Shown here: positions 3,124-64,000 of the stretch, piece by piece | Layout: each line of letters begins with the position of its first letter | Position numbering within the stretch: position 1 is the stretch's first letter | Source of the DNA: an uncultured Planctomycetia bacterium | Lineage (GTDB): Bacteria; Omnitrophota; Gorgyraeia; CAYWPX01 | Length of the DNA: 64,000 bases | Direction of reading: 5' to 3' | Assembly (NCBI GenBank): GCA_964460615.1 | Contig: CAYWPX010000001.1 | Location: forward strand, 120,073-184,072 | Made by a program: the position numbers and the translations under genes | Notes under the pieces: model-generated | The model's database searches: none | Told to the model about the DNA's origin: nothing | The model's input: the letters and a program-made list of their open reading frames with translations, nothing else

Positions 3124-3202
3124 GCACACACTTCGGGATAATTCGCACCTATAACTTAGTTTCCCATCGGGTCACCTAAGTTATGTGCTCATTAAGGAAA
3201 TA

Positions 3203-6448: not shown

Positions 6449-6862
6449 ATGAAAATAGACTTGCAGAAAATCATTAATTATAAGTTAATTCTTTTGGTTT
6501 GGATTATTATCTGGCTGCTATTTTTTGTCAGAGGATTTGTAAAAGCGGACTATAAGATTTTTAAGGCCACCATAGGTAAAAGTACCGAAGAGAAGAAAGC
6601 GTTTTCTATGACGCCGGGCCTCTATAAATTTATAGAATTCTGCGATAAAAATACGCCAAAAGATTCCAGTTTTAAATTTGAGTACAATAAGCAGCTTCTC
6701 GATCCGGTTGAAGAAGTAAGGATGATGTATTATCTTTATCCGAGAATTATTAAGGATGAACCGAGGTATATTTTTGTATTCGGGGTGCCCGGGTATAGGA
6801 TCGAAAGCTACAGGCTGGTAAATAGGCTGGATGAAAACTCGTTTATTTTAGAAAAAGAGTAG
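6449..6862 (+). CDS. hypothetical membrane-anchored protein
   Basis: 137-aa ORF with one N-terminal hydrophobic helix (LILLVWIIIWLLFFV); tightly packed between two glycosylation genes. Confidence 0.4.
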   Translation: MKIDLQKIINYKLILLVWIIIWLLFFVRGFVKADYKIFKATIGKSTEEKKAFSMTPGLYKFIEFCDKNTPKDSSFKFEYNKQLLDPVEEVRMMYYLYPRIIKDEPRYIFVFGVPGYRIESYRLVNRLDENSFILEKE

Positions 6863-6884
6863 TTCTCCAAAGGAATAAGGAATA

Positions 6885-10671: not shown

Positions 10672-12735
10672 ATGATTAATAACGCCAATTCTACCGATCC
10701 TTTGGGTCAATCGTTAAGTATTGAAAGTAATCCACTGCATTTATTTGCTGAGGTTGCGCTGGATGTTCCTATAGATAAAACCTTTGATTATATAATTCCT
10801 TCCCAATTAAAAAATGATATTTCCATCGGAAAAAGGGTAACGGTCCCATTCGGCAAGAGAGACGCCGTGGGGATAGTAATAGGGTTCAGGGATAAGACGG
10901 ATATAAGGAATCTAAAAGAGATAATAAAAGTTAATGATGCTTTCCCGTTGATCGATGAAAAAATGATCAATGTTGCCAAATGGGTATCTTGCTACTATTG
11001 CGCCTCGATAGGCCAGTCAATTTTTCTTAATATCCCATCCCGTTTAAAGAAAGATGCGATCCCCAAGAAATCAAGAAAAACCAATCAAGCTAAATTAGCT
11101 CAAGAAGAGATTTTTGTCGAAGCGCCGAAAATAGAATTAAACAGAGAGCAGAATAATGCTCTTCATAGGATCAAAAGTCATCTCGGCTCTTTCAGAGTAT
11201 TTTTGTTGCATGGTGTTACTGCCAGCGGTAAGACCGAGATATATTTGAAGGCCGCAGAGGAGGTATTAAAGAACGGCAAGGATGTTATAGTACTTGTCCC
11301 CGAGATAGCCCTTACTATACAGACCATGAATAAATTTAAGGCAAAATTCAAAGACAAAGTCGCAATTATCCACTCAGGGCTTTCGGAAGGTAAAAAATAC
11401 CAGGAATGGCTGAATTGTTTGGAAGGAAGATCAAAGCTTGTTATTGGCGCAAGATCTGCTCTTTTTGCTCCGTTTAAGAATGTCGGTCTTATCATCATAG
11501 ATGAGGAACATGAGCCTTCTTATAAAGAGATGACAAGTCCCAAGTATAATACCCGTGATGTTGCTATTAAAAGGGCCGAGGCGGAAGAGTGCCCTGTCAT
11601 TTTAGGTAGCGCTACGCCATCATTAGAATCATTTTATAAGACGAGTCTCAATGAATATGAATTGATCGAGTTAAAAGAGCGTTTTGAAAAACGGCTGCTG
11701 CCGGAAGTAAAGATTGTCGACATGGCCGATGAATATCAGTTTAGAAGAATGTCCATATTTTTTTCAAGGATCCTTTTGAAGGAATTGGAAAAAATTTTGG
11801 CCAAGAAAGAGCAGGCGATACTTTTTTTGAACAGGCGCGGTTTTGCAACGATCGTCTCCTGCAAGTCATGCGGCCAGATAACTAGATGTTCGAGGTGCGA
11901 TTCGGTAATGGTTTATCACTCAGGTAAAGGAAGCTTAGTCTGTCATTACTGCAACCTTACGCAAAGGCCCCCTGTGAGGTGTCCTAAATGTGAGTCAGCG
12001 CAATTTAAGTTTTTGGGTATAGGGACTGAGAAGGTTGAGTCTGAGATAAACCGTCTTTTCCCGAAAGCAAGGGTTGCCAGGCTTGATACTGATGTGACCA
12101 AGAAAAAGGGCGTACAGGAAAAGATACTGGATGGTTTTAGAAGGCATGAGGTCGATATTCTAGTAGGTACACAGATGGTTGCTAAAGGGCTTGATTTTCC
12201 CGATGTCACTCTTATAGGTGTTATCTCAAGCGATATTAATCTGAATATTCCTGATTTCAGGGCTTCTGAAAGGACATTTAATCTTCTTACGCAGGTAGCG
12301 GGCAGGTCCGGAAGGGGTAAAAAAGAGGGACTGGTCATTATACAGACCTATAATCCAAAGCATTATTCGATAATAGAGAGCTCAAAGCATAGCTATGAAA
12401 ATTTTTATAAGGCAGAATCATCCTTTAGGAAAGAGCTTAATCTGCCTCCTTATGTTAATCTTGTCAAGGTTACTTTTTTGGCTTCAAAGAGCGAAATAAG
12501 CCAGAGTGCTGCGCTTAGCCTAAAAGGGTTGTTAATTAAAGAGTATGGTTTTTTGGAAGATGGATTTCAGGGGCCGGTCCCCGGAGTTATTTTTAAGATA
12601 AAAAACAGGTTTATCTGGAATTTATTTCTAAAGACGGGGGAAGTTCTGAAAGTCTCAAGGGCTCTAAAAAATATTTTGGGGGACTCCAGGTCTTTTAATA
12701 AGGCCTATGTCAATATTGATGTAGACCCGGTATAG
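10672..12735 (+). CDS. priA: primosomal protein N' (replication restart helicase PriA)
   Basis: Walker A GVTASGKTEIY, DEEHE box, Cys-rich zinc-binding region CKSCG...CSRCD...CHYC...CPKC; 687 aa. Confidence 0.9.
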   Translation: MINNANSTDPLGQSLSIESNPLHLFAEVALDVPIDKTFDYIIPSQLKNDISIGKRVTVPFGKRDAVGIVIGFRDKTDIRNLKEIIKVNDAFPLIDEKMINVAKWVSCYYCASIGQSIFLNIPSRLKKDAIPKKSRKTNQAKLAQEEIFVEAPKIELNREQNNALHRIKSHLGSFRVFLLHGVTASGKTEIYLKAAEEVLKNGKDVIVLVPEIALTIQTMNKFKAKFKDKVAIIHSGLSEGKKYQEWLNCLEGRSKLVIGARSALFAPFKNVGLIIIDEEHEPSYKEMTSPKYNTRDVAIKRAEAEECPVILGSATPSLESFYKTSLNEYELIELKERFEKRLLPEVKIVDMADEYQFRRMSIFFSRILLKELEKILAKKEQAILFLNRRGFATIVSCKSCGQITRCSRCDSVMVYHSGKGSLVCHYCNLTQRPPVRCPKCESAQFKFLGIGTEKVESEINRLFPKARVARLDTDVTKKKGVQEKILDGFRRHEVDILVGTQMVAKGLDFPDVTLIGVISSDINLNIPDFRASERTFNLLTQVAGRSGRGKKEGLVIIQTYNPKHYSIIESSKHSYENFYKAESSFRKELNLPPYVNLVKVTFLASKSEISQSAALSLKGLLIKEYGFLEDGFQGPVPGVIFKIKNRFIWNLFLKTGEVLKVSRALKNILGDSRSFNKAYVNIDVDPV

Positions 12736-27337: not shown

Positions 27338-27348
27338 TAAATTGGTAT

Positions 27349-27377
27349 AGGGTCAAGGGTTAAGGGATAAGCGGATA
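27349..27377 (+). repeat. heptad array (GGGTYAA-type) between the two ABC ATPase genes
   Basis: AGGGTCA AGGGTTA AGGGATA AGCGGATA; related TAGGGATAAGGGTTAG at about 61700. Confidence 0.6.
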
Positions 27378-27402
27378 AAATCTTTTAGAAAAAACAAATA
27401 TT

Positions 27403-30185: not shown

Positions 30186-30191
30186 TATAAT

Positions 30192-30256
30192 AGCTCATGG
30201 CTCGCAAGCTCATAGCTCATAGGTAAATTCCTAGAGCCCTGAACCTAGAGCCTGGG
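30192..30256 (+). repeat. heptad array (GCTCAT-type) plus duplicated CCTAGAGCC motif between the GNAT gene and leuC
   Basis: AGCTCATG GCTCGCA AGCTCATA GCTCATA; CCTAGAGCC-ctgaa-CCTAGAGCC. Confidence 0.7.
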
Positions 30257-30279
30257 GCAGTATTTAAGAGGGAATTAAA

Positions 30280-31545: not shown

Positions 31546-31606
31546 TGGCAGAAGACAGAAAACAGAATTCAGAAGTTAGAAAAAACTAAAAAAATAAGAG
31601 ATAAAA

Positions 31607-33421: not shown

Positions 33422-33450
33422 GTACGGCGTACGGAGTAAGGAGTACGGCG
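33422..33450 (+). repeat. heptad array (GTACGGC)x4 between leuB and asd
   Basis: GTACGGC GTACGGA GTAAGGA GTACGGC. Confidence 0.7.
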
Positions 33451-34496: not shown

Positions 34497-35264
34497 ATGC
34501 ATAATATCAGGTTAACTATTGAGTATGATGGTACAGATTATTCTGGCTGGCAAGCTCAAAGAAGCGCAAATAGCAAATCGCAAATAGCAAATAAAGAAAT
34601 AAGAACCATACAGGGTACTATAGAAGAAGCTCTTTTAAAGATTCTGCAGGAAAAGGTAAATATTGTTGCCGCGGGAAGGACAGATAGCGGCGTTCACGCT
34701 GTTGGACAGGTGTGCAATTTTAGAACCAGTTCTAAAATTGCGCCTTTAAGCATAAAGAAGGCTCTTAATAGTGCCCTCCCTAAGGACATTTCAATTAAAA
34801 GCGCAGAGTATGTAGAACTTAAATTCAATTCCCAGATTGACGCCAAAAGTAAAATCTATAGATATAGGATACTCGCTCGTGATCACGGAGCTCCCTTATT
34901 AAGGAAGCAGACCTACAATTACAAGTTTCCTCTTGACCTTAAGCTGATGAAGAGTGAAGCCAAGGCGCTTCTGGGGAGGCACAATTTTAAATCTTTTCAG
35001 GCAAAAGATATAGTAGAAAGATTCCCAAGATGCAATGTAAAAAGCATTGTTATCACTAAGGAAGGGGATCTGATTAATATTGACATTGAGGCTGACAGGT
35101 TTCTCTACAATATGGTCAGGAATATTGTAGGTACCTTGCTGGAAGTGGGCAGGGGCTACTTTAAAAAAGGCTCTATGCATATCATTCTTAATAAGCTTGA
35201 TAGATCTTTAGCAGGGCCAACTGCACCCAGCCATGGATTAACGCTACTAAAAGTTAAATATTAA
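34497..35264 (+). CDS. truA: tRNA pseudouridine(38-40) synthase
   Basis: IEYDGTDYSGWQ, AAGRTDSGVHAVGQV catalytic Asp motif. Confidence 0.85.
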   Translation: MHNIRLTIEYDGTDYSGWQAQRSANSKSQIANKEIRTIQGTIEEALLKILQEKVNIVAAGRTDSGVHAVGQVCNFRTSSKIAPLSIKKALNSALPKDISIKSAEYVELKFNSQIDAKSKIYRYRILARDHGAPLLRKQTYNYKFPLDLKLMKSEAKALLGRHNFKSFQAKDIVERFPRCNVKSIVITKEGDLINIDIEADRFLYNMVRNIVGTLLEVGRGYFKKGSMHIILNKLDRSLAGPTAPSHGLTLLKVKY

Positions 35265-38602: not shown

Positions 38603-38676
38603 GCGATTAGGCGATTAAGTGATTAGGTAATTAGGTAAAACCCAATCACATAATCGCATAATTACCAAATCGCTAT
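38603..38676 (+). repeat. octad-periodic imperfect inverted repeat between argJ and argB
   Basis: GCGATTAG GCGATTAA GTGATTAG GTAATTAG ...loop... CAATCACA TAATCGCA TAATTACC AAATCGC (arms reverse-complementary at about 26 of 33 positions). Confidence 0.75.
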
Positions 38677-38693
38677 ATTATTAAAGGAAAAAA

Positions 38694-40732: not shown

Positions 40733-41668
40733 ATGTGGAAGGATAAGCCAAAGAAAGACCTTATAAGGCTATTAGATCTTAGTAGCGATGATATTAACTA
40801 TATTTTCGATGTCACAGAGAAATTAAAGTGCAAAAAGATCGGCCTTGATGAGCCTTTAAAGAATAAAAACCTGGCGCTTATTTTTCAGAAACCTTCCAAC
40901 AGGACCAGGGTCTCCTTCGAAGTCGGTATGCATCAGCTTGGCGGTGATACGATATATCTGGGGCCGGAAGATATTAAGCTCGGCGTCAGGGAATCAAGCA
41001 AGGATATCGCAAAAGTTTTATCCAGGTACGTCGATGTTATTGTTGTAAGGACATTTTCCAATAAAGTTGTCGAAGAAATTGCCGAGTATTCTTCAATGCC
41101 GGTCATTAACGGCCTTAGCGATCTTTATCATCCCTGCCAGGGACTTGCTGATATATTTACGATAAAAGAAAAGTTCGGGTCATTTAAAAATATTCAAATT
41201 AGTTATGTTGGCGACGGGAATAATGTATTAAATTCTCTTATGGTTGGGGCAAGTATTCTAGGCCTAAATTTAAATATTGCTACACCAAAAAAATACGAAC
41301 CCAACAAGAACATTGTTAGTGATGCTATGGCAATAGCCAAAAAGACGGGAGCAAGTATTAAATTTTCCAATGACCCGGTTGAAGCGGTTAAAAATTCTGT
41401 AGTTATTTATACGGATGTCTGGACCAGCATGGGCCAGGAAAAGGAAGCCGCAAAAAGAAGGAAGGCGTTTAAGAGTTTTCAGATCAATGAGAAGCTTTTA
41501 AGCTGTGCCAAAAAGGAATGCTTGGTCATGCATTGTCTTCCGGCTCATAGGGGCGAAGAGATCACTGATGAGGTCATGGACGGGCCAAGTTCGATAGTTT
41601 TGGACCAGGCTGAAAACAGGCTCCATATACAGAAGGCGTTACTTTTAATATTACTTGGGAAAATATAG
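40733..41668 (+). CDS. argF: ornithine carbamoyltransferase
   Basis: STRTRVSFE carbamoyl-phosphate motif, HCLPA motif. Confidence 0.9.
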   Translation: MWKDKPKKDLIRLLDLSSDDINYIFDVTEKLKCKKIGLDEPLKNKNLALIFQKPSNRTRVSFEVGMHQLGGDTIYLGPEDIKLGVRESSKDIAKVLSRYVDVIVVRTFSNKVVEEIAEYSSMPVINGLSDLYHPCQGLADIFTIKEKFGSFKNIQISYVGDGNNVLNSLMVGASILGLNLNIATPKKYEPNKNIVSDAMAIAKKTGASIKFSNDPVEAVKNSVVIYTDVWTSMGQEKEAAKRRKAFKSFQINEKLLSCAKKECLVMHCLPAHRGEEITDEVMDGPSSIVLDQAENRLHIQKALLLILLGKI

Positions 41669-41737
41669 CTGTAAGCTATAAGTTGTAAGCCGTAAGAAGA
41701 TCCAAAGATTTAAAAGCTTATTGCTTAAAGCTTATAA
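41668..41737 (+). repeat. heptad-periodic imperfect inverted repeat between argF and argG
   Basis: GCTGTAA GCTATAA GTTGTAA GCCGTAA ... AAGCTTAT TGCTTAA AGCTTATA. Confidence 0.7.
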
Positions 41738-41759: not shown

Positions 41760-42929
41760 ATGAAAAAAGTTGTTCTAGCATATTCAGGGGGCCTTGATAC
41801 TTCCTGTGCGGTAAAATGGCTGAAGGATAGAGATTATTTCGTTATCTGCTATATGGCTGATGTCGGTCAGGGCGGTAATTTTAATGAGATAAAAAAACGT
41901 GCTTTTGCCGCGGGCGCTGATAAGGTAGTGATAGAGAGTTTGCAAAAAGAGTTTGTAGAGGATTTTGCGTTCGTTTCTTTAAAAGCTGGGGCAGTATATG
42001 AATCCAAGTATTTTTTGGCGACTGCGCTTTCGAGGCCTCTTATAGGTAAAGGCTTAGTGAATGTTGCCAGAAAAGAAAAAGCTCAGGCGGTATCTCATGG
42101 ATGCACCGGGAAAGGTAATGACCAGGTAAGGATCGAGACGTCCGTCATGTCTTTGGGCGGGGACCTTGAGATAATTGCTCCCGTACGAGTGTGGGAATTT
42201 AAGACCAGAAATGAAGAGATAGATTATGCGAAAAAACAGAATATCCCGATAGATGTGACCAAAAAAAGCCCATATAGTTTAGATAAGAACCTATGGGGAG
42301 TCAGTATCGAGTGCGGTATCTTAGAAGACCCTATGGTGGAACCTCCTAAGGATGCCTATCAATGGACAAATGACCCCAAAGACGCTCCCAATAAAGAGAC
42401 TTATATTGAAGTTACTTTTGAAAAAGGCATACCTATTAAGGTCAATGGTAAATCGCTTGAACCGGTCCAGTTGGTTGAAAAGCTTAATGAGATCGGCGGG
42501 CTTAATGGTGTAGGCAGATGTGACCTCGTAGAGAACAGGCTTGTAGGAATAAAATCCAGAGAGATCTATGAAGCCCCGGCTGCATATATTCTTCACACGG
42601 CATACGAAGCATTGGAGAATCTGGTTTTAGACAGAGAGACTTTTCATTTTAAAAAGAGTTTATCTTTAAAATATGCCGAGATGGTTTATTTTGGCCTGTG
42701 GTTTACACCGCTAAAAAGCGCCTTGGACAAATTTTTTGATGAAGTTGCTAAAAAGATTAGCGGAACTACAAGGCTCAAGCTGTATAAAGGAACGTGTGCT
42801 ATCGTAGGCAGGACTTCACCGAATTCACTTTATAAAAAAGATCTTGCTACTTATGACGAAGGCGATAAGTTTGACCAGTCATTTGCCGAAGGTTTTATAA
42901 GGATATGGGGATTGCCGTATAAGAAATAG
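41760..42929 (+). CDS. argG: argininosuccinate synthase
   Basis: AYSGGLDTS PP-loop; start at ATG 41760 (track 41721). Confidence 0.9.
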   Translation: MKKVVLAYSGGLDTSCAVKWLKDRDYFVICYMADVGQGGNFNEIKKRAFAAGADKVVIESLQKEFVEDFAFVSLKAGAVYESKYFLATALSRPLIGKGLVNVARKEKAQAVSHGCTGKGNDQVRIETSVMSLGGDLEIIAPVRVWEFKTRNEEIDYAKKQNIPIDVTKKSPYSLDKNLWGVSIECGILEDPMVEPPKDAYQWTNDPKDAPNKETYIEVTFEKGIPIKVNGKSLEPVQLVEKLNEIGGLNGVGRCDLVENRLVGIKSREIYEAPAAYILHTAYEALENLVLDRETFHFKKSLSLKYAEMVYFGLWFTPLKSALDKFFDEVAKKISGTTRLKLYKGTCAIVGRTSPNSLYKKDLATYDEGDKFDQSFAEGFIRIWGLPYKK

Positions 42930-42957
42930 TTCATGGTTCATGGCTCATAGTTCATAG
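42928..42957 (+). repeat. heptad array (GTTCATG-type) overlapping the argG stop codon
   Basis: GTTCATG GTTCATG GCTCATA GTTCATA. Confidence 0.7.
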
Positions 42958-43009
42958 TTTAAAAGAACTGTGGCCAAGCGCCTGGAGCAAAACGCGGGAG
43001 AAAAAATTT

Positions 43010-48241: not shown

Positions 48242-48245
48242 ATTT

Positions 48246-48292
48246 AGCTCATAGTTCATAGCTCATAGCTGATGGCTGCGAGCTGAAAGCTT
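48246..48292 (+). repeat. heptad array pair between dapB and dapL
   Basis: AGCTCAT AGTTCAT AGCTCAT AGCTGAT GGCTGCG AGCTGAA AGCTT, ending 11 nt before ATG 48304. Confidence 0.7.
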
Positions 48293-48303
48293 AAGGGAAA
48301 AAC

Positions 48304-54285: not shown

Positions 54286-54323
54286 TTATTAGACCTAAGC
54301 TATCAGCCTTTAGCGCGATCACT

Positions 54324-54491
54324 AGCACAAGAACACATGAGCACAAGACACAGGAGTACAAGTACACAAGATCACTCGTCGCAAGTTTAAAGCTTTTACC
54401 GGTGCTCTTGTGACTGGTGCTCTGGTGACAGCAACGTTGGAGCCCTGGTGTCCTAATTATGCTGATAGCTGATTTCTGAAAACTGAAAGCT
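54324..54491 (+). repeat. composite intergenic array: 8-nt CACAAG-type units, partly complementary GGTGCTC units, then GCTGAWA heptads abutting the start codon
   Basis: AGCACAAG AACACATG AGCACAAG ACACAGG AGTACAAG TACACAAG; GGTGCTC TTGTGAC TGGTGCT CTGGTGA; GCTGATA GCTGATT TCTGAAA ACTGAAA GCT. Confidence 0.7.
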
Positions 54492-54496
54492 AAAAA

Positions 54497-55648
54497 ATGG
54501 ATAAAGTTAGACTTATTGCTACATCGACATTCGGGCTGGAAGCTATGGTTAAGCGTGAGCTTAGCAATCTCGGCTTTTATGACACGACCGGTGCTGATGG
54601 AAGAGTGGAATTCGACGCTAACTTAGCTGATATCCCGCGTTTAAATATAAATCTAAGAACTGCCGATAGAGTACTCTTAAAAATAGGTGAATTTAAAGCA
54701 TTTGATTTCGGCGAGCTTTTTGACGGGACAAAGGTACTTCCCTGGGAAGATTGGATACCTAAGGACGGTAAGATAAATGTCAGCGGTAAATGTGTCAAAT
54801 CTACTCTAATGAGTGTGCGCAGCTGTCAGTCGATAGTCAAAAAAGCTATTGTCGATAGATTAAAAGATAAATTAAAGACTGATTTGCTTCCTGAGTCTGG
54901 CCTGGAGTTTGGTATTCAGGTAGCAATGCTGAAGGATGCGGCTTTACTTACGCTAGATACTTCCGGAGCAGGGTTACACAAACGCGGCTATCGAACAGAA
55001 TCCGGTGAAGTTCCTATGCGAGAAAATCTTGCAGCTGCACTTGTAATGCTAAGTTCCTGGAAAAAAGATAAATTGCTCATAGATCCTATGTGCGGCTCAG
55101 GGACCATCCTCATAGAAGCCGCTATGATAGCCCGGAATATTGCTCCCGGATTAAAGCGTAAATTTGCCTCCGAGGATTGGCCTAAGATTGAAAAAAAGTA
55201 TTGGGACGAGGCGCGTAAGGCCGCTCGAGAGGCCATTAAGACCGAGGGGGTTTTAAATATTCTAGGTTTCGATATAGATCCGGATAGGATAAGGGATTGT
55301 AAGATTAACGCCAAAAATGCCGGAGTAGATAAGGACATAGTTTTTGAGGAAAAAGATATCAGAGAACTAAGGATAGATAAGCCGTCCGGCTATATTATCT
55401 CCAATCCTCCGTATGGTGTTGAGATGGGGACATTAAAAGAGTTGACGCATTTATATATCCTGATCCACAATATGTTTCGAAAGAAACTCGGCTGGGCAGT
55501 TTATATAATAACCGCAGATAAAAGATTTCCGGATTTTTTTAAACGCGCTAAACCTGACAGGGTAAGGAAGCTATTTAACGGTGGCCTGGAGGTAAATTAT
55601 TATCAGTATTTTGCAAAAGAGATAGAAAAGAAGGCAACTAGCTCATAG
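54497..55648 (+). CDS. THUMP-domain class I SAM-dependent RNA methyltransferase (RlmL/COG0116-like)
   Basis: N-terminal THUMP-like region; methyltransferase motifs IDPMCGSGT and ISNPPYG. Confidence 0.8.
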   Translation: MDKVRLIATSTFGLEAMVKRELSNLGFYDTTGADGRVEFDANLADIPRLNINLRTADRVLLKIGEFKAFDFGELFDGTKVLPWEDWIPKDGKINVSGKCVKSTLMSVRSCQSIVKKAIVDRLKDKLKTDLLPESGLEFGIQVAMLKDAALLTLDTSGAGLHKRGYRTESGEVPMRENLAAALVMLSSWKKDKLLIDPMCGSGTILIEAAMIARNIAPGLKRKFASEDWPKIEKKYWDEARKAAREAIKTEGVLNILGFDIDPDRIRDCKINAKNAGVDKDIVFEEKDIRELRIDKPSGYIISNPPYGVEMGTLKELTHLYILIHNMFRKKLGWAVYIITADKRFPDFFKRAKPDRVRKLFNGGLEVNYYQYFAKEIEKKATSS

Positions 55649-55711
55649 CTCATTGCTCATAGTTCATAGTAAAAGCAATAACTGAAAGCTGATAGCTGAT
55701 AGCTGAAAGCT
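55640..55711 (+). repeat. heptad array pair: (AGCTCAT)x4 overlapping the stop codon, spacer, (GCTGAWA)x4
   Basis: AGCTCAT AGCTCAT TGCTCAT AGTTCAT ...17 nt... ACTGAAA GCTGATA GCTGATA GCTGAAA GCT. Confidence 0.75.
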
Positions 55712-55731
55712 AATTTGATAGGAAATAAAAA

Positions 55732-55986
55732 ATGTCAAAGATTAAACTGGATATGCATGATATATTTAATAAGTCCGAAGAGATTGAGTTGGAGCTTAAT
55801 AGGGTTATTGATGAAGCAATGCGAAAAAAGATCCAGCTTGTTGAGATAATCCCGGGTAAGGGGAGCGGCCAACTCAAAAAACATGTACTAAGATTTTTAC
55901 AAAATCCGGAAATCAAAAAACTATATCATCGCATAGAAAAAGACGATAAGAATTTTGGCAGGATCTTTGTGCATTTTAAGTTTTAA
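55732..55986 (+). CDS. Smr-domain protein
   Basis: 84 aa; LDMHD...IIPGKGSGQLKKHV matches the Smr LDLHG...HGKG pattern. Confidence 0.7.
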   Translation: MSKIKLDMHDIFNKSEEIELELNRVIDEAMRKKIQLVEIIPGKGSGQLKKHVLRFLQNPEIKKLYHRIEKDDKNFGRIFVHFKF

Positions 55987-55991
55987 GAGAA

Positions 55992-56064
55992 TGGCTCATG
56001 GTTCATAGCTCATTGCTCATAGTAAAAGCAAGAACTGAAGACTGTGAGCTGAAAGCTGAAAGCT
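55992..56064 (+). repeat. heptad array pair (GCTCAT-type then GCTGAA-type)
   Basis: GGCTCAT GGTTCAT AGCTCAT TGCTCAT ... GAGCTGAA AGCTGAA AGCT, ending 8 nt before ATG 56073. Confidence 0.75.
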
Positions 56065-56072
56065 AAAAAATA

Positions 56073-56765
56073 ATGACTAAAGAAATTCTATCCAAAGATA
56101 TACCAGCACCGAAGCTTATCAGATCCCGAAGGCGAAGCATCGCCTTGGAAGTCAGGCATGACGGCACCCTTGTAGTGAGGGCGCCGCATTTTCTTCCGGA
56201 TGCCCAAATACGAGAGTTTATTAGTAAGAGGCGCGCTTGGATAGATAATGTTTATAATCGTACACGTGAGAAGTTGCAATTATTTAAACCTAAGCAATTT
56301 GTTAATGGTGAGAAATTTCTTTATCTAGGCAATGAGTATACTCTGCATATAACCCAGGATATGGACGGTAAGTTTCTTTTTGAAAACCAATTTATACTTA
56401 ATGAACGGTATATAGCTAAAGCAAAAATACTCTTTGAGCGTTGGTATAGACAAGAGGCATTTATGCTTTTTACCAAAAGATGCAAATGCTATGCTCAATA
56501 TATGAGTGTAAGCTATAAAAGTATCAGTCTATCAAATGCCAAACACCGCTGGGGTTCATGCTATCCGAATGGAGGGCTTGGATTTAATTGGCGTTTAGTG
56601 ATGGCGCCGGAATGCATTATTGATTATGTAGTTGTGCATGAATTGGCGCATCTGGTTGAGGCCAATCACTCTAAACGGTTTTGGGCGCTAGTAGAAAAAA
56701 CGTTTCCAAATTATAAAGAAGCAAAGTTATGGCTAAGGGATAATCAACATAGGCTTAAGATATAA
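56073..56765 (+). CDS. YgjP-like M48-family metallopeptidase (DUF45/SprT-like, HExxH)
   Basis: HELAHLVEANHSKRFWALVE zinc motif; 230 aa. Confidence 0.8.
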   Translation: MTKEILSKDIPAPKLIRSRRRSIALEVRHDGTLVVRAPHFLPDAQIREFISKRRAWIDNVYNRTREKLQLFKPKQFVNGEKFLYLGNEYTLHITQDMDGKFLFENQFILNERYIAKAKILFERWYRQEAFMLFTKRCKCYAQYMSVSYKSISLSNAKHRWGSCYPNGGLGFNWRLVMAPECIIDYVVVHELAHLVEANHSKRFWALVEKTFPNYKEAKLWLRDNQHRLKI

Positions 56766-56880
56766 GCTCATAGCTCATGGTTCATAGCTCATACTAGAAA
56801 TAGTACGCAGTACACTGTACAAAGTACACAGTAAAAACATTACTTGTGTTCTGGTGACTGATAGCTGAAAGCTGACGACT
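56766..56880 (+). repeat. heptad arrays: (GCTCATA)x4, (AGTACAC)x5, GCTGA-type units
   Basis: GCTCATA GCTCATG GTTCATA GCTCATA; AGTACGC AGTACAC TGTACAA AGTACAC AGTAAAA; GATAGCT GAAAGCT GACGACT. Confidence 0.75.
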
Positions 56881-56912
56881 TCCGCCACAAAGCGTTGGCG
56901 GACAAGGATAGC
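56879..56912 (+). repeat. hairpin repeat element CTTCCGCCA-N8-TGGCGGACARG, copy 1
   Basis: Same ~35-nt element recurs at 59805-59839; rearranged variant at 59144-59191. Confidence 0.7.
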
Positions 56913-57105
56913 CAATATATTTATCCTTCACAATAATCCAATCAACAAATCTCCGATTTAATTTCAAATGTAGAAAATAATCAGAAAAAAGTAGACTGAA
57001 ACTATGTCCTTCCAAAACACTCCGTTATATAATTAAATATATTGAAAAAAGGAACGATCAGAAAATTGTCTGCCGTAAGACAGTCTTAAATCGAAAGGAG
57101 ATTGT

Positions 57106-57753
57106 ATGTTCACGCATCATGGGAAAACAATGATCGACCCGAAAGATTCTGTGCTTTTACTAATTGACCATCAAAGCGGTTTATTTAATCTTGTTAAAGA
57201 TATGGAAGTTGTTGATCTGCGCAATCATGTCATAGCTCTTGCCAAGGTGGCAACTAAGCTAAATATCCCTGTTATCACTACTGCCTCAGTGCCGGAAGGG
57301 GCAAATGGGCCGGTTATTCCGGAGATTAAGGTATTTGCTCCAAACGTTAAGTACATTCCGAGGCAAGGCCAGATAAATGCGTGGGATGTGCCTCTCTTTG
57401 TAAGTGCGGTTGAAGAGACAAAGCGTAAAACCCTTATTATGACCGGCACGCTCACAAGCGTATGCCTGGCATTCCCGGCCTTATCGGCAGCGTCAGCCGG
57501 ATACAAGGTATATGCAGTTGTGGATGCATCGGGGAACTGGAGCAAGATGGCGACGGATCTCACGATAGCGCGTCTCGCTCAGGCAGGAGTTATACCTATA
57601 GATACGTTCGCTGTCATAGGCGAGCTGCAGCAGACCTGGAACCGGCCTGATGCATTGGATTATGCCGAGATATTCGGTGAAAATATAATACCAAATTACC
57701 GTTTGCTTATGGAAAGCAAAAGCAATATTCAGGAGCCTGTTTACCAAAAATAG
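57106..57753 (+). CDS. isochorismatase-family hydrolase
   Basis: LLLIDHQ motif and catalytic Cys in TGTLTSVCL; 215 aa. Confidence 0.8.
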
Positions 57754-57821: not shown

Positions 57822-57932
57822 TTCAAATTCAGGTATTTTGCCTTGTATAGGAAATCACTAAGTGCTATAATTAATCATTATAAAAGGAAACAAGCGTGAG
57901 CGAACGTAACTATAATTAGTGTTACTAGATAA

Positions 57933-57962
57933 GCAATCCCTATGGAGGGGGTTGCTTTTTTT
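57933..57962 (+). terminator. intrinsic terminator
   Basis: GCAATCCC-tatggag-GGGGTTGC followed by TTTTTTT. Confidence 0.65.
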
Positions 57963-58042: not shown

Positions 58043-58115
58043 GATTTAAAACCTGAGACTTGCTACCGCAATCTGCGTGTGTTTCGAGCGAAGCAGAGGG
58101 ATAACCTGTGACATG
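58043..58115 (+). repeat. ~70-nt direct repeat, copy A (upstream of the DUF1559 gene)
   Basis: TTTAAA..AGACTTGCTA.C...AATC.GCG.GTGT..CGAGCGAAGCAGAGGGAT shared with 58906-58978. Confidence 0.7.
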
Positions 58116-58179: not shown

Positions 58180-58878
58180 ATGAATAAAAACAATTCTTTA
58201 AAAGGATTTACTTTATTAGAACTTTTGGTTGTTATTGTTGTTATTGGTGTCTTGGCAGGGCTTCTTCTCCCCGTTATGAGCGGAGTCAGGGAGCAGGGTA
58301 GGCGTATTACTTGTCTCAACAATCTTCGCCAGCAAGGTATTGCATGGTATATGTATCTTGATGAGCATAATGATTGTTTTCCTGCATATAGTGATCCTCC
58401 AAATGATACGCAATGTATGGAAACCACTTTTGGGGGCAAAGCCGGTGATAGTGGGTTCGCAGCTACGTCGAGACCTCTTAATCGATATCTCGGGATAAAC
58501 AATACAACTCCTGCGGACGTTTTTCATTGTCCCGACGATATAAAAGCAGCTCAAGGCCAGAGCAGAACAGTCTTCGATGTTTTTGGGAACTCATATTATA
58601 TTAACCCATGCATTTTACTTTATGGGGTGACGGATAGAAGGCCCTTGGCTTCAATCACCAATCCACGTAATAAGGTGTGGTTTGAGATGTGTTCTTTGGA
58701 TATGGTCCCGGGACATAGTGGAAAAGGATTTCAAGGTAATTTCACGCCAGTAATGGTGCTTTTTGTAGATGGGCATGTAAAGGGGCCGTATCTTTCTGAC
58801 AGTGAATTTGACTGGTTTGATAATCCATCAAAATCCGTATGCTGGTATCCTAATGCTACAGAGGATCCTCTTGATTAG
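58180..58878 (+). CDS. prepilin-type N-terminal cleavage/methylation domain protein, DUF1559 (H-X9-DG) family
   Basis: KGFTLLELLVVIVVIG prepilin leader, conserved CxNNLRQ region, C-terminal LFVDGHV. Confidence 0.85.
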   Translation: MNKNNSLKGFTLLELLVVIVVIGVLAGLLLPVMSGVREQGRRITCLNNLRQQGIAWYMYLDEHNDCFPAYSDPPNDTQCMETTFGGKAGDSGFAATSRPLNRYLGINNTTPADVFHCPDDIKAAQGQSRTVFDVFGNSYYINPCILLYGVTDRRPLASITNPRNKVWFEMCSLDMVPGHSGKGFQGNFTPVMVLFVDGHVKGPYLSDSEFDWFDNPSKSVCWYPNATEDPLD

Positions 58879-58905: not shown

Positions 58906-58978
58906 AATTTAAACTTAAGACTTGCTATCTGTAATCAGCGGGTGTCCCGAGCGAAGCAGAGGGATGGCATGGAACAGG
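58906..58978 (+). repeat. ~70-nt direct repeat, copy B (downstream of the DUF1559 gene)
   Basis: About 80% identical to 58043-58115 in the same orientation. Confidence 0.7.
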
Positions 58979-59034: not shown

Positions 59035-59082
59035 AGATATAACTTATTTTAAATCAAATATTATACAGTGGTGCCAGGCACC
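59035..59082 (+). repeat. conserved upstream element ending in palindrome GGTGCC-A-GGCACC, copy 1
   Basis: AGATATAACTTATTTTAAATCAAATA..TTATA..GTGGTGCCAGGCACC; near-identical at 61088-61136, partial at 63202-63239. Confidence 0.75.
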
Positions 59083-59143
59083 AGAAAAAGTACTGGAGCT
59101 CGTGATCGTACTGATAACTCCAGCTACAAAGCTTCGACATAAA

Positions 59144-59191
59144 CCATTGGCGGATAAAGTTGGCGGGCAAGGATAGCTGATCGCTGATAGG
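59144..59191 (+). repeat. variant of the CCGCCA/TGGCGG element fused to GCTGATA heptads, ending at the SD
   Basis: ACCATTGGCGGATAAAGTTGGCGGGCAAGGATAGCTGATCGCTGATAGG; left arm inverted relative to the copies at 56879 and 59805. Confidence 0.6.
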
Positions 59192-59200
59192 AGGAAAACC

Positions 59201-59788
59201 ATGAAAGTAATAGCATTTAACGGCAGCTCGCGAAAAGAAGGTAATACTGCAATTCTAATTAAGCTTGTGCTTAAGGAATTAGAGAAAGATGGTATCAAGA
59301 CTGAACTAGTGGAATTGGCCGGTGAAAAAATTCAAGGTTGCATTGCCTGTTACAAATGTGTTGCCAACAAAGATAAAAAATGCGCCATAAATGACGACAT
59401 AGTTAACGAGTGTATAGATAAAATGGATAAGGCGGATGGTATTATCATAGGTTCCCCTACATATTTTGCTGATTGCACTTCACAGACAAAGGCGCTTATT
59501 GAACGGGCTGGGTTTGTATCGAGAGCAAATGGAGGTATGTTTAAGCGTAAAATAGGTGCCGCAGTTGTATCTGTGAGGCGAGCTGGGGCGATACATGCTT
59601 TTAATAGTATAAATCACTTTTTTACAATAGGTGAGATGATAATAGTCGGGTCTAGCTACTGGAATATAGGTATAGGTAGAGAAATCGGCGATGTGGAAAA
59701 AGACGAAGAAGGTTTAAAGGTAATGAGTACACTTGGGAAGAATATGGCGTGGTTACTTAAGAAGATAGCTCCAGGCTCTGGGCTCTAG
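59201..59788 (+). CDS. flavodoxin-like NADPH-dependent FMN reductase / iron-sulfur flavoprotein family
   Basis: MKVIAFNGSSRKEGNT, GSPTYF flavin-binding motifs; Cys cluster CIACYKC...C; GGAGGA SD. Confidence 0.8.
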   Translation: MKVIAFNGSSRKEGNTAILIKLVLKELEKDGIKTELVELAGEKIQGCIACYKCVANKDKKCAINDDIVNECIDKMDKADGIIIGSPTYFADCTSQTKALIERAGFVSRANGGMFKRKIGAAVVSVRRAGAIHAFNSINHFFTIGEMIIVGSSYWNIGIGREIGDVEKDEEGLKVMSTLGKNMAWLLKKIAPGSGL

Positions 59789-59804
59789 GGAAAAAGCTCA
59801 TGGC

Positions 59805-59839
59805 TTCCGCCACAAAGCGTTGGCGGACAGGCATGGCGC
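59805..59839 (+). repeat. hairpin repeat element CTTCCGCCA-N8-TGGCGGACAGG, copy 2
   Basis: Same element as 56879-56912. Confidence 0.7.
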
Positions 59840-59978
59840 ATAGTAAAAATGAAGGACGATAGGCGAGGGATGAGAGGATAGTTTGGAGTTGGGAGCGAAA
59901 TCTATCTAAAGATAGATTTCAGGAGTTGGGAGTAAAAAAGTAAAAGAAAAAATGGGCGCCGTCCATATATATATCTAA

Positions 59979-61087: not shown

Positions 61088-61136
61088 AGATATAACTTAT
61101 TTTAAATCAAATAGTTATAACGTGGTGCCTGGCACC
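61088..61136 (+). repeat. conserved upstream element ending in palindrome GGTGCC-T-GGCACC, copy 2
   Basis: About 45/49 identical to 59035-59082; its 3' end runs into the LamG reading frame. Confidence 0.75.
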
Positions 61137-61639
61137 GTAAAGGCACAGGAGAGACGGTAGGAAGATTTTATACTAGCTCTGGAGTCTCGTTAGTTGAAGG
61201 AGAGTGGTATAATCTTGCTTTTACTAGAAATTACAATACTTCCTCTATCTTAATTGACGGGGTTTCACTGCCCACAATTCAGCCCATAGATTGGGCCAGT
61301 AATATGGAAATTCTAACATCGCCAGTTTATTTGGGCAGTGCCGCAACAGCACCAGGATATGGATTAAGAGGATACTTAGACAATTTACAGATTTGGAATT
61401 ATGCGCGAACTGAGCAGCAATTAAAGGATTCCATTACTAATTTACCGAATGGTAACGAGGAAGGCTTAATGGGGTATTGGAATTTTGATAATATTCAAAA
61501 TGGTGTTGTGCCTGACTTAACTGAATATGGTAATAATGGTTTTATTAATCCGCCTATTTCTACGCCAGAGCCTGTATCAATGCTTTTATTTGGTATCGGT
61601 GGATGGGTGTTGGCGCTATTAAGAAAAAAACGCTCATAA
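61121..61639 (+). pseudogene. LamG-like (concanavalin-type) PEP-CTERM protein, 5'-truncated fragment
   Basis: Frame open from 61121 encodes a LamG C-terminal half (EGEWYNLAFTRNYNTSSILIDGV, DNLQIWNYARTEQQL) and a PEP-CTERM tail (TPEPVSMLLFGIGGWVLALLRKKRS); no N-terminal half or signal peptide; first in-frame ATG at 61304. Confidence 0.6.
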
Positions 61640-61974: not shown

Positions 61975-62002
61975 AAACGTAAGTTAATTTGGAGGTGGTA
62001 AT

Positions 62003-62047
62003 ATGCAAAACCTCGCGTTAAAAGTAGCTGGATTTGTTTTTGGGTTA
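62003..62047 (+). pseudogene. truncated 5' copy of the small membrane-protein gene
   Basis: ATGCAAAACCTCGCGTTAAAAGTAGCTGGATTTGTTTTTGGGTTA with GGAGGTG SD matches the 5' end of 62111 and 63736; frame stops after 26 codons. Confidence 0.5.
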
Positions 62048-62110
62048 GAAGTAAAAAACGGGTCACACCTATTTATTTGAAATTACTATAGAAAACCGGG
62101 AGGTTCAACC

Positions 62111-62296
62111 ATGCAAGACATCGCGTTAAAAGTAGCTGGATTTGTTTTTGGGTTAGTGGCTATATTACATCTTTTGAGAGTGTTATTTAAAGTAAAGTTT
62201 ACGGCAAATAATATTGTAATTCCTCTATGGCTAAGTGTAGTTGCTTCGATAGTGGCGCTGTTGCTGGCGCTTTTTATGTTCGCGTGTTTGCAATAG
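62111..62296 (+). CDS. small membrane protein, two predicted TM helices (copy 1)
   Basis: 61 aa; paralog of 63736-63924; C-terminal 24 aa identical between copies. Confidence 0.5.
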   Translation: MQDIALKVAGFVFGLVAILHLLRVLFKVKFTANNIVIPLWLSVVASIVALLLALFMFACLQ

Positions 62297-62430
62297 GGGA
62301 AGTTTGGAGTTGGCCTAGATGCCTATACCACTCCTAGTCCTCGTGGTGCTTAACGGCATCGCGGCATGAAATCGCGCATCGCTTGATTTCAGGAGTATGC
62401 GGTAACAAGTCGCAGGCCTCAGATTACATG
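62297..62430 (+). repeat. conserved GC-richer non-coding element downstream of the small membrane-protein gene
   Basis: 62279-62370 appears identical to 63909-64000 where the window ends; contains a 16-codon hydrophobic mini-ORF (MPIPLLVLVVLNGIAA). Confidence 0.6.
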
Positions 62431-62474: not shown

Positions 62475-62876
62475 ATGAAAAAGATAAATGTAATACTAGT
62501 AATATTATTAAGCATAAGTTGTATGGGATTTTCGTTTATGAAGAAAGAATTGTCAAAAGAAAAGATATTGGAAATCGCCATTAATAGGGCAAATGAACTT
62601 GGGTTTACTCTCAATCAGGTTACTCCTTACTTTGACGAGGGAAACAAAAGACTTAAAGAACACTCAAGAAATAGCGGCGTGTCCACCTATAACGAAAAGA
62701 AAGAAGAGTGGGTATATGACGCGCCATCTACCCCGACAAAAAAATATCCTGAATTAGAAGATCGAAATTATCAGGCGGTATATTTTGCCCCCAAAGAAAT
62801 GCAGCTTGGTGGCGATCTCTGGATCTTTATAGACAAGAACACCGGGGAAGTGATCTCGTATGTGTTTGGGAAATAA
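62475..62876 (+). CDS. hypothetical lipoprotein or secreted protein
   Basis: 133 aa; N-terminal signal-like segment with Cys (LLSISCMG). Confidence 0.5.
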   Translation: MKKINVILVILLSISCMGFSFMKKELSKEKILEIAINRANELGFTLNQVTPYFDEGNKRLKEHSRNSGVSTYNEKKEEWVYDAPSTPTKKYPELEDRNYQAVYFAPKEMQLGGDLWIFIDKNTGEVISYVFGK

Positions 62877-62880
62877 AGAT

Positions 62881-63010
62881 GCTCAAGGCTCCAGGCTCTA
62901 GGGAAAAACAAAATACCGCTCCAGGTTCGGGGGTGAGTCCCCTTCGGCGAGGCTATGCTTCGCTTTGCACGGGTGAGAGGAAAACCTAGAGCTCTGAGCC
63001 TAGAGCCAAG
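62881..63010 (+). repeat. GC-rich structured intergenic element with long-range inverted repeat
   Basis: GGCTCCAGGCTCTAGGG ...~80 nt... CCTAGAGCTCTGAGCCTAGAGCC; internal GGGG-tgagt-CCCC hairpin; related motifs at 59769-59795 and 30230-30256. Confidence 0.55.
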
Positions 63011-63201
63011 AGCGGGTTTTGTGCTATATTAAATTGATGGAACAACAAAACCCTTTGTGTTATAATAAATGGTAACAGATTCGAGTAACACGGAAAGGGA
63101 ACAAGAAGCAATGGGTCTTTTTGGTAGCAAACAAAATAAAAGTATAAAGGTGAATTAATTTAAGCCGGGGATAAAATTCTCGGTTTTTTTGTTCAAAACT
63201 C

Positions 63202-63239
63202 TTTTAAATTTAAGTATTTATAAAGCGGTGCCTGGCACC
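63202..63239 (+). repeat. partial copy 3 of the GGTGCC-T-GGCACC palindrome element
   Basis: TTTTAAAT...TATTTATAAAGCGGTGCCTGGCACC, 22 nt upstream of ATG 63262. Confidence 0.6.
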
Positions 63240-63261
63240 GAAAAATTAAAAAGGAGAAAAA

Positions 63262-63651: not shown

Positions 63652-63735
63652 ATTCTAAAAATTAATTAAGCAATAAAAGTGGTGAGTAATAATAAGGGAA
63701 AAGGGGACGCTTCTATTTAAGTTGAAGGCACAACC

Positions 63736-63924
63736 ATGCAAAACCTCGCACTAAAAGTAGCTGGATGTATATTTGTTATAGTGGCTATTATGCAGCTTTT
63801 GAGAGTGCTATTTAAGGTAAAGATTGTGGTTAATGATAATATTATTGTTCCTATATGGCTTAGCGTGGTGGCTTCGATAGTGGCGTTGTTACTTGCGCTT
63901 TTTATGTTCGCGTGTTTGCAATAG
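63736..63924 (+). CDS. small membrane protein, two predicted TM helices (copy 2)
   Basis: 62 aa; paralog of 62111-62296. Confidence 0.5.
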   Translation: MQNLALKVAGCIFVIVAIMQLLRVLFKVKIVVNDNIIVPIWLSVVASIVALLLALFMFACLQ

Positions 63925-64000
63925 GGGAAGTTTGGAGTTGGCCTAGATGCCTATACCACTCCTAGTCCTCGTGGTGCTTAACGGCATCGCGGCATGAAAT

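Follow-up and report, generated by a model that had tools for sequence, protein, structure and literature searches.

The window analysed here is a stretch of 64,000 nucleotides (nt) of contig CAYWPX010000001.1, from an uncultured bacterium of the Omnitrophota, and our subject is a set of short tandem arrays of 7-nt units (heptads) that it carries in the spacers between genes. The arrays were first pointed out in a first-pass annotation of the block between 54.3 and 57.1 kb. The gene identities given there are borne out by open reading frame (ORF) calls and Pfam scans: a THUMP/RlmL-type methyltransferase (54497-55648), an Smr protein (55732-55986), a YgjP-like metallopeptidase (56073-56765) and an isochorismatase (57106-57753). 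Period-7 arrays were identified in these spacers by Tandem Repeats Finder (TRF) at 55639-55669, 55682-55711, 55991-56020, 56047-56068 and 56765-56793.

According to the annotation, every spacer of the block has one design: a GCTCAT-type array at the stop codon and a GCTGAW-type array ending 8-25 nt before the next ATG, the two pairing as a ladder-like hairpin in which each heptad contributes 4-5 paired bases and leaves 2 unpaired. The ladder was reproduced by RNA folding; for example, the arrays at 55639-55669 and 55680-55714 pair in this bulged form. The stop-codon array is present at the ends of the THUMP, Smr and YgjP genes and missing in spacer 54286-54496, where none lies at the upstream stop; here the segment 54300-54449 has a predicted fold of -44.5 kcal/mol. 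The spacing claimed for the second array does not hold in spacer 56766-57105, in which it lies 230 nt from the ATG and an AGTACAC family is nested inside the hairpin. Composites of 73 nt at 55641-55713 and 55994-56066 (repeat family D4) are 85% identical and have their loop sequence in common. The element at 56802-56857 is a third D4 copy with a 67% in-register match.

Arrays throughout the window

The arrays are a non-random sequence class strongly biased to gene boundaries. The AGCTCAT-type doublet AGCTCATAGCTCAT, with up to two mismatches, has 14 matches in the window versus 0.50 expected, and the AGCTGAW-type doublet AGCTGAWAGCTGAW has 18 versus 2.05; neither count was reached in any shuffle. 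Self-similarity in the 6.1 kb of noncoding DNA amounts to 59 positions at lag 7, 7 positions at lag 8 and none at lags 2-6 and 9-13. TRF gives 22 period-7 rows in the 64 kb and the lag-7 analysis 23 arrays, so that the design is not confined to the block in which it was first seen. Nearly all of the arrays (21/23) are within, or overlap the edge of, the noncoding 9.5% of the window, and 12/23 start between -20 and +7 nt from a stop codon. Spacers hold 18 lag-7 arrays against a shuffle mean of 2.3. The possibility raised at the outset, that these might be randomly distributed low-complexity sequence, thus failed on both the period-7 excess and the positional bias to gene boundaries.

All of the doublet matches (32/32) are on the + strand. 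Because 66 of the 67 genes in the window are on that strand too, this polarity cannot be assigned to either transcription or replication. The units themselves vary by spacer and include GGGTTAA, CAGAAAA, GTACGGA, AGCTGTA, GCGATTAG, CTAGAGC, AGTACAC and GCACAAG, with AGCTCAT and AGCTGAW the commonest. Stop codons occur in at least two frames in 9 of 12 stop-adjacent arrays, yet 6 of these belong to one family; a three-frame stop barrier was not taken as a selected function, since these stops come with the unit that is repeated. In practical terms, the stop codons and last residues of ORFs can come from arrays.

The arrays are not restricted to strings of unrelated genes (Table 1). They are also found between leuC and leuD, argF, argG and argH, argJ and argB, dapB and dapL, and oppD and oppF, which is at odds with the idea that they punctuate cassettes. 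The recurrence proposed for the dapB/dapL spacer was found by both TRF and lag-7 analysis; in this array AGCTCAT units change to AGCTGAT/GGCTGCG/AGCTGAA units without a break in phase. Recurrence before the flavoprotein gene held in part, because most of 59144-59191 is taken up by a palindromic element of another kind, with just 2.7 heptads after it. The one clear coding exception among the 23 arrays lies in truA, where an insert of 12 residues follows GWQAQR.

Table 1. Positions of heptad arrays and adjoining elements in the window (MFE, minimum free energy).
Spacer or gene	Element	Positions	Strand	Remarks
DUF5674 operon/THUMP	outer-stem 5' arm AAGCTATCAGC	54297-54307	+	paired in MFE fold; exact complement of GCTGATAGCT at 54461-54470
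DUF5674 operon/THUMP	inner array, 7-8-nt units AGCACAAG, AACACAT, GAGCACAAG, ACACAGG, AGTACAAG, TACACAAG	54324-54375	+	TRF periods 8, 15; pairs with 54401-54429 (fold)
DUF5674 operon/THUMP	GGTGCTCTTGTGACT x1.9, inverted partner of inner array	54401-54429	+	TRF
DUF5674 operon/THUMP	AGCTGAW-type array TGCTGAT AGCTGAT TTCTGAA AACTGAA AGCTAAA	54460-54494	+	sequence
THUMP/Smr	AGCTCAT-type array x4.4	55639-55669	+	includes THUMP stop TAG (55646-55648)
THUMP/Smr	AGCTGAW-type array x5	55680-55714	+	ends 17 nt before Smr ATG (55732)
Smr/YgjP	GCTCAT-type array x4.3	55991-56022	+	starts 5 nt past Smr stop (55984-55986)
Smr/YgjP	array CTGAAGA CTGTGAG CTGAAAG CTGAAAG CTAAA	56035-56067	+	TRF, sequence; fold -23.5 kcal/mol, z = -2.3
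YgjP/isochorismatase	AGCTCAT-type array x4.1	56765-56793	+	starts at final base of YgjP stop TAA (56763-56765)
YgjP/isochorismatase	nested second element: AGTACAC-type array x4.6 (56802-56837) and partial inverted partner CATTACTTGTGTTCTGGTGA	56802-56857	+	TRF, fold
YgjP/isochorismatase	array GACTGAT AGCTGAA AGCTGAC	56856-56876	+	closes outer hairpin; 230 nt to next ATG
YgjP/isochorismatase	small palindromic dispersed element CTTCCGCCACAAAGCGTTGGCGGACAAGG (repeat family D13)	56879-56911	+	adjoins array 56856-56876
oppD/oppF-like (two ABC ATPase genes)	AGGGTTA/AGGGATA array	27344-27378	+	starts 7 nt past stop; no inverted partner
GNAT/leuC	AGCTCAT-type array x4.6 and inverted CTAGAGC/CCTGAAC array	30190-30262	+	fold -29.2 kcal/mol
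leuC/leuD	CAGAAAA-type array	31549-31576	+	at stop; no inverted partner
leuB/asd	GTACGGM array x3.9	33422-33448	+	starts 3 nt past stop; no inverted partner
truA (inside ORF)	GCAAATA x4 array	34562-34595	+	in frame; encodes insert SANSKSQIANKE
argJ/argB	period-8 array GCGATTAG x4 and inverted AATCGCAT x4	38603-38677	+	one mismatch per period; fold -27.3 kcal/mol, z = -6.9
argF/argG	AGCTGTA-type array x4.3	41667-41696	+	starts inside argF stop
argG/argH	AGTTCAT/GGCTCAT array x4.9 and diverged inverted partner (42966-42990)	42926-42990	+	includes argG stop; fold -26.2 kcal/mol, z = -4.1
dapB/dapL	one continuous in-phase array	48245-48296	+	starts 3 nt past stop
downstream of ORF 62475-62876	GCTCAAG GCTCCAG GCTCTAG array at stop; spacer element	62878-63013	+	inverted partner CCTAGAGCTCTGAGCCTAGAGCCAAGAGC at 62985-63013, beyond ~80-nt G+C-rich insert

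The spacer element at 62878-63013 has a related array copy (family D11) at 59768-59795, overlapping the end of the FMN-reductase gene. The palindromic D13 element, also given as CTTCCGCCACAAAGCGTTGGCGGACA, adjoins heptad arrays or sits inside them. It has a second copy at 59804-59835 and a variant at 59146-59175, and within 59793-59842 it seems to break up GCTCATG-type heptads.

An inverted partner array is present in about 9 of 14 array-bearing spacers. Predicted folds of the simple spacers range from -17 to -30 kcal/mol, with z-scores of -0.2 to -6.9 relative to dinucleotide shuffles. The source of this stability was traced with synthetic hairpins. Two identical AGCUCAU arms fold at -16.1 kcal/mol, native-like AGCUCAU and AGCUGAU arms at -20.6, true complement arms at -47.6 and arms with a non-palindromic core at -4.2. 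Where two AGCT-type arrays pair, the self-complementarity of AGCT thus accounts automatically for about three quarters of the pairing. By contrast, the pairs GCGATTAG/AATCGCAT and GCACAAG/CTTGTGA are genuine inverted copies.

Scans for regulatory signals gave no match at the arrays. Rfam 15 at gathering scores had none in the whole window, and a promoter consensus scan of 53-60 kb found nothing at arrays. None of the eight terminator-like sites between 53000 and 60000 coincides with an array, although canonical terminators are present (e.g. 57931-57957). Array 3' ends have no U-tract. Intrinsic terminators, which would have a G+C-rich stem followed by a U-tract, were accordingly rejected as an identity for the arrays.

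Turnover in relatives and occurrence in metagenomes

Searches with its proteins assign the window to the Omnitrophota, and close relatives were retrieved through exact-protein look-ups. Two of the contig sets, L034 and L161, derive from one close relative that has a protein identity of 83-85% and about 72% nucleotide identity in genes, and is syntenic with the window over about 20 kb. Unit number and unit sequence differ between the window and species-level relatives. Some arrays are kept in this relative: upstream of THUMP an AGCTGAC AGCTGAA array occupies the same place despite a different upstream gene, and the dapB/dapL spacer has GGCTCAT AGCTGAT AGCTCAT only, being shorter and lacking the 3' half. 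Other spacers hold unrelated units. The THUMP stop carries GGAGTTA x4 in place of AGCTCAT, and argF/argG has TGAATAG x4 at the stop with an inverted CTATTCA partner, compared with AGCTGTA in the window. Arrays are missing from the leuB/asd and argJ/argB spacers of L161, and there is none in the 73 nt after its argG stop, where the contig ends. The arrays are thus evolutionarily labile, and orthologous spacers behave as fast-turnover repeats.

In truA, at the same site (about 2580-2620 of L161) and with the same length and frame, the relative has GTCCATA x4, encoding TVHSRQSIVHRE; all four units differ in concert from the GCAAATA of the window. Slippage of a single unit would shift the reading frame, yet all of the units have changed together.

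Among the remaining contig sets, L035 is the same as L034 in sequence, and L163 is identical to the window across the argG/argH array. Heptad arrays are absent from three Omnitrophota loci at 66-71% protein identity, which together span 59 kb. The L161 and L162 contigs both stop at one position a short way past argG, in a spacer that carries an array in the window. No array is seen at this break, which may be due to repetitive spacer DNA that interrupted assembly.

Other inserts were observed in the same relative. Between panC and panD L034 has a 133-nt insert (6856-6988), and the truA/rplM and rplM/rpsI spacers of L161 contain dispersed palindromic inserts with repeated GGGATTAATTCG...CCGTAAATT elements; the corresponding spacers of the window are short. 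Turnover in this lineage is therefore a general property of spacer content.

Gene content of the block varies as well. The segment 55649-62474 (about 6.8 kb) is missing in L034, where 11132-11186 takes its place and THUMP is directly followed by the homologue of ORF 62475-62876; because the two directly adjoin, this is an insertion or deletion difference. The segment encodes Smr, YgjP, isochorismatase, a DUF1559 pilin-like protein and FMN reductase, and it also contains three ORFs that match no Pfam family. Upstream of THUMP the relative and the window also differ, with VF530 in the former and DUF5674 plus a 110-aa ORF in the latter. The comparison with relatives that had been proposed as a check on cassettes hence found a variable block, but not arrays that define its units: YgjP and Smr are neighbours without arrays in L157 to L159 (in strings such as YgjP-SUI1-Smr), and similar strings of small unrelated genes in L157 and L160 also lack them. 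For THUMP itself, a search of a genome collection gave no close relative, the best identity being 65%. Matches in Anaerolineae/Chloroflexota reach 65%, versus 61-65% in other Omnitrophota, which suggests that the gene was exchanged horizontally.

Metagenome contigs were scanned for exact matches to GCTCAT-N-G-N-TCAT x4. This gave at least 120 stretches, with GCTCATN x4 in at least 120 contigs, and 80 loci were analysed. The G+C content of the 80 loci listed ranges from 25 to 73%, and the presence of one unit across such different backgrounds speaks for a cause of a general kind, mutational or functional, and not for shared ancestry. Among the loci listed the arrays adjoin gene ends, with an orientation that depends on the seventh base. 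Inverted partners accompany 15 of 68 arrays as opposed to 5 of 1539 background windows (about 70-fold). With the seed family excluded, other heptad arrays occur at 1.96 per 10 kb in these loci, close to the 1.88 of the window, versus 0.21 in 429 kb of unrelated genomes. Since other heptad families are rich in the same loci, heptad richness belongs to the genome as a whole and turns up again in scattered lineages.

Relation to known repeat classes

The first-pass annotation could not match the design to REP, attC or CRISPR architecture. The design is not without a known counterpart, however: it matches intergenic heptanucleotide repeats (PMC4679880, PMC4692102), and the arrays belong to this class of long simple sequence repeats (LSSR), or repeats like the short tandemly repeated repetitive (STRR) sequences, seen here in an Omnitrophota genome. 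A literature search returned no description of such repeats in Omnitrophota, and the window adds this phylum to their carriers. As far as the summaries of Mrazek 2007 in PMC4679880 and PMC4692102 go, the commonest class of LSSR is that of heptanucleotides, which are sporadically distributed and were ascribed to polymerase slippage. Features in common with LSSR, as summarised there, are the tandem 7-nt units, their excess over other lengths, the intergenic position, the sporadic lineage-specific spread and the several unit families per genome. The arrays have at least three head-to-tail 7-nt units, a period-7 excess and a noncoding location, and they are present in the window, L034 and L161 but not in the 59 kb of loci at 66-71% protein identity. 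Unlike LSSR, they are short (3-5 units) and degenerate, and mostly form inverted pairs that start at stop codons. This makes the window a clean example of short, one-strand, often paired arrays that start at stops and have unrelated units at orthologous sites of a close relative.

Several better-studied heptamers resemble the arrays in part. For cyanobacteria, Mazel et al. reportedly described in 1990 the STRR heptamers CCCCAGT, TTGGTCA and CAACAGT; no unit in the window equals any of these sequences, and an assignment to STRR in the strict sense was rejected. Elhai is said to have reported in 2008 that cyanobacterial heptamer arrays have small dispersed elements inserted into them or next to them, and the D13 palindrome, lying against or inside arrays, recalls such insertions. 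Nostoc has arrays of GGGGAYT, TTTTGAA and GACYAAT, and cyanobacterial heptamer arrays also occur inside operons and beside start codons (PMC4692102; bioRxiv 10.1101/2022.06.06.494920). They share with the present arrays the intergenic position, which is sometimes between genes of one operon or near starts, and the occasional inverted pairs. They differ in their units and can be much longer; the arrays here are not G-rich and have no G-quadruplex potential.

Arrays of TAACTGA in marine Beggiatoaceae lie directly upstream of starts that often lack a Shine-Dalgarno sequence (MacGregor 2015, PMC4679880). They consist of 2-6 forward copies a few nt before such starts. In the window, too, forward AGCTGAW-type arrays precede start codons: 54460-54494 ends 2 nt before the ATG at 54497, 55680-55714 ends 17 nt before that at 55732 and 56035-56067 ends 5 nt before that at 56073. 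The THUMP and YgjP starts have no Shine-Dalgarno sequence. The two sets also share a CTGA core, stop codons within the units and flanking genes without a common function. However, the Beggiatoaceae arrays have a single dominant unit, almost no inverted copies and a start-proximal position, whereas those of the window comprise many families, are paired and are stop-proximal. They are not TAACTGA repeats proper: the units are AGCTGAA/AGCTGAT, and TAACTGA occurs just once, at the edge of an array (55678-55684). Intergenic GGGAATC arrays of Xanthomonas, some inverted, vary in length between close species (Rehm et al. 2015, PMC4692102). As here, some form inverted pairs able to fold as stem-loops, but the Xanthomonas units are G-rich and quadruplex-forming, in contrast to units built on palindromic AGCT or CTAG cores.

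Repetitive extragenic palindromic (REP) sequences, bacterial interspersed mosaic elements (BIME) and REP doublets forming hairpins (REPIN) are imperfect palindromes in transcribed spacers at gene 3' ends, with hairpin doublets (REPIN architecture, PMC3116915; REP/BIME, PMC3333891). They are the nearest and likely functional analogue, by virtue of hairpins at mRNA 3' ends. A REP family has one conserved sequence of 20-40 nt tied to a REP-associated tyrosine transposase (RAYT), while the arms of the present arrays consist of heptads in tandem, with many different sequences. The D4 composite has 2-3 copies in the window, but most arrays have different units. No RAYT (Y1 transposase) was found among about 50 window ORFs scanned against Pfam, nor any integrase or other transposase.

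Like the attC sites of integrons, the arrays form an imperfect inverted repeat with unpaired bases 3' of co-oriented small genes. Unlike attC they have no R''/R' core sites, are not accompanied by an integrase among the scanned ORFs, and also lie inside core operons; a regular-expression scan for RYYYAAC...GTTRRRY in seven spacers had no match on either strand. CRISPR arrays were rejected because the units of 7-8 nt directly abut and are not repeats of 23-50 nt with unique spacers. The first-pass view that the architecture is not that of REP, attC or CRISPR is supported by the attC core, terminator and Rfam scans. To take the arrays for cassette boundaries, attC sites or terminators would be a mistake.

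Proposed origin, role and competing explanations

The window contains a lineage-specific population of stop-adjacent, strand-polar, labile arrays of heptads (some of 8 nt), which are often paired. We are inclined to explain them, with slightly better than even confidence, as LSSR/STRR-like lineage-specific arrays that are made by slippage and have a REP-like, modulatory effect on mRNA. Their probable source is replication slippage, a process with a known preference for heptamers, which would create an array, expand it and homogenise its units. Expansion might continue until it runs into an ORF at one end and into the ribosome-binding region at the other; growth stopped by selected sequence would account for array starts at stop codons or within them. 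The inverted partner might arise automatically, as AGCT-NNN arrays pair through their palindromic core, or by template switching across a nascent hairpin. Composites of about 75 nt would sometimes be copied to another spacer (55641 vs 55994, 85%).

As part of the polycistronic mRNA, the arrays would form long, weak, bulged stem-loops between a stop and the next start. By analogy with REP/BIME, these might slow 3'-5' exonucleases or offer RNase sites without terminating transcription, and might thereby tune the relative stability and translation of the adjoining cistrons, including access to the next start. Stops in several frames within many units might additionally halt read-through ribosomes. 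Any such effect would be modulatory and dispensable at each single site. The REP-like effect on mRNA is the weakest step of this proposal.

Several observations weigh against it. Simple slippage does not predict the strict + polarity (32/32). No copy-number difference is seen in the near-identical strains L001 (100%) and L163 (99%). Metagenome arrays lie in co-directional, divergent and convergent spacers at 21:7:5, about as any intergenic DNA does by crude ORF calls. Among the 14 spacers folded, 4-5 arrays have no inverted partner, z-scores relative to shuffles are modest for several elements, and the comparison of + and - strands, a test of G-U asymmetry meant to distinguish RNA from DNA structure, was mixed, the transcribed strand folding no better than its complement. 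Nor does the proposal account for the polarity, the same design with unrelated units at one spacer and the concerted change in truA.

The principal alternative is that the arrays are a neutral or selfish by-product, debris of slippage-prone replication or repair that is tolerated under weak selection and has no effect on expression; hairpin potential and stop adjacency would then be side effects. We consider this unlikely, though it deserves serious weight. Gain and loss at single orthologous spacers, the absence of arrays from distant relatives, the diversity of units, the mostly automatic pairing from the AGCT core, the lack of strand asymmetry in folding and the occurrence in all intergenic types in the metagenome loci are all consistent with it, and the same explanation has been offered for heptameric LSSRs generally (PMC4679880, PMC4692102). 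It is harder to reconcile with 32/32 matches on one strand or with an in-frame truA array at the same site and of the same length in two species. Nor are non-palindromic, true-complement partners (GCGATTAG/AATCGCAT, GCACAAG/CTTGTGA and, in L161, TGAATAG/CTATTCA) automatic, and inverted partners exceed background about 70-fold in the metagenome loci.

Arrays that serve as binding sites for a periodic DNA- or RNA-binding protein (S1-, Csp- or CsrA-like, or a dimer recognising AGCT), by which the flanked genes would be co-regulated in translation initiation or transcription, seem improbable. The strict polarity, the AGCTGAW arrays 2-17 nt before starts, two of which (THUMP and YgjP) lack a Shine-Dalgarno sequence, and the retention of the array upstream of THUMP in L034 despite a different upstream gene might be read in this way, and analogous proposals exist for Beggiatoaceae TAACTGA (PMC4679880) and Nostoc heptamers (bioRxiv 10.1101/2022.06.06.494920). 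However, there are at least 10 unrelated units in 64 kb, so that no single sequence-specific binder fits. Unrelated units also occupy orthologous sites, the flanked genes have no functional theme and no candidate protein was identified.

Equally speculative is a dedicated RNA-level system. Heptad-periodic bulged hairpins at stops might be a widespread, unrecognised class of intercistronic RNA element in uncultivated lineages (25-73% G+C), in which the 7-nt register would be recognised by a dedicated RNase or RNA-binding protein, and template switching would renew the arrays and keep the arms complementary despite drift of the unit sequence. This would fit the strict polarity, the unrelated units at argF/argG and the concerted change in truA, but we give it little credence. 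Unless polarity and co-evolution of the arms do reflect such a system, the interest of the arrays is modest.

Mobilisation of hairpin doublets in trans by a RAYT or an IS200/IS605-type transposase, as for REPIN or miniature inverted-repeat transposable elements, with period 7 as a secondary trait, is very improbable. The dispersed 73-nt composite with its common loop sequence (85%, third copy 67%), the nested element-in-loop composites at 54286-54496, 56766-56880 and 62878-63013, and the D13 palindromes that adjoin or interrupt arrays would agree with it. A mobile family would be near-identical, whereas here the units differ by site and arrays at orthologous sites diverge in place in relatives. 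Many arrays are also single, without a partner; no target-site duplications are evident, and the scanned ORFs include no transposase.

The reading of the first-pass annotation, integron-like or site-specific recombination sites that delimit mobile single-gene cassettes, is largely refuted and retains next to no plausibility: the block genes are small, unrelated and co-oriented, their content varies on both sides of THUMP, and recombination between similar arrays at successive stops could promote precise deletions, but arrays that occur identically within conserved biosynthetic operons, are missing from similar gene strings in relatives and are accompanied neither by attC cores in the seven spacers scanned nor by an integrase or transposase among the roughly 50 ORFs scanned are not cassette boundaries.

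Other repeats were noted in the window. A 48-nt repeat made up of AACTTATTTTAAATCAAATA...TATAA and then the palindrome GGTGCC(T/A)GGCACC occurs at 59040-59087, 61094-61141 and 63197-63244. Its copies precede the starts of three genes (59201, 61304 and 63262) by 20-165 nt, and it has the look of a promoter or operator common to them. The DUF1559/prepilin-type gene 58180-58878 has on either side a copy of an element containing CGAGCGAAGCAGAGGGAT (58070-58113 and 58933-58976); the two copies are 80% identical. Tandem carbamoyltransferase paralogues (1342-3051 and 3185-4909) are 99% identical over 300 nt (2095-2394 vs 3953-4252) and about 70% in neighbouring parts, which suggests recent gene conversion. 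Finally, a segment with small putative membrane-protein ORFs (MQNLALKVAGFVFGL...) is duplicated at 61991-62372 and 63724-64000 with 74-93% identity, and has an extra local tandem copy at 61991 and 62099.

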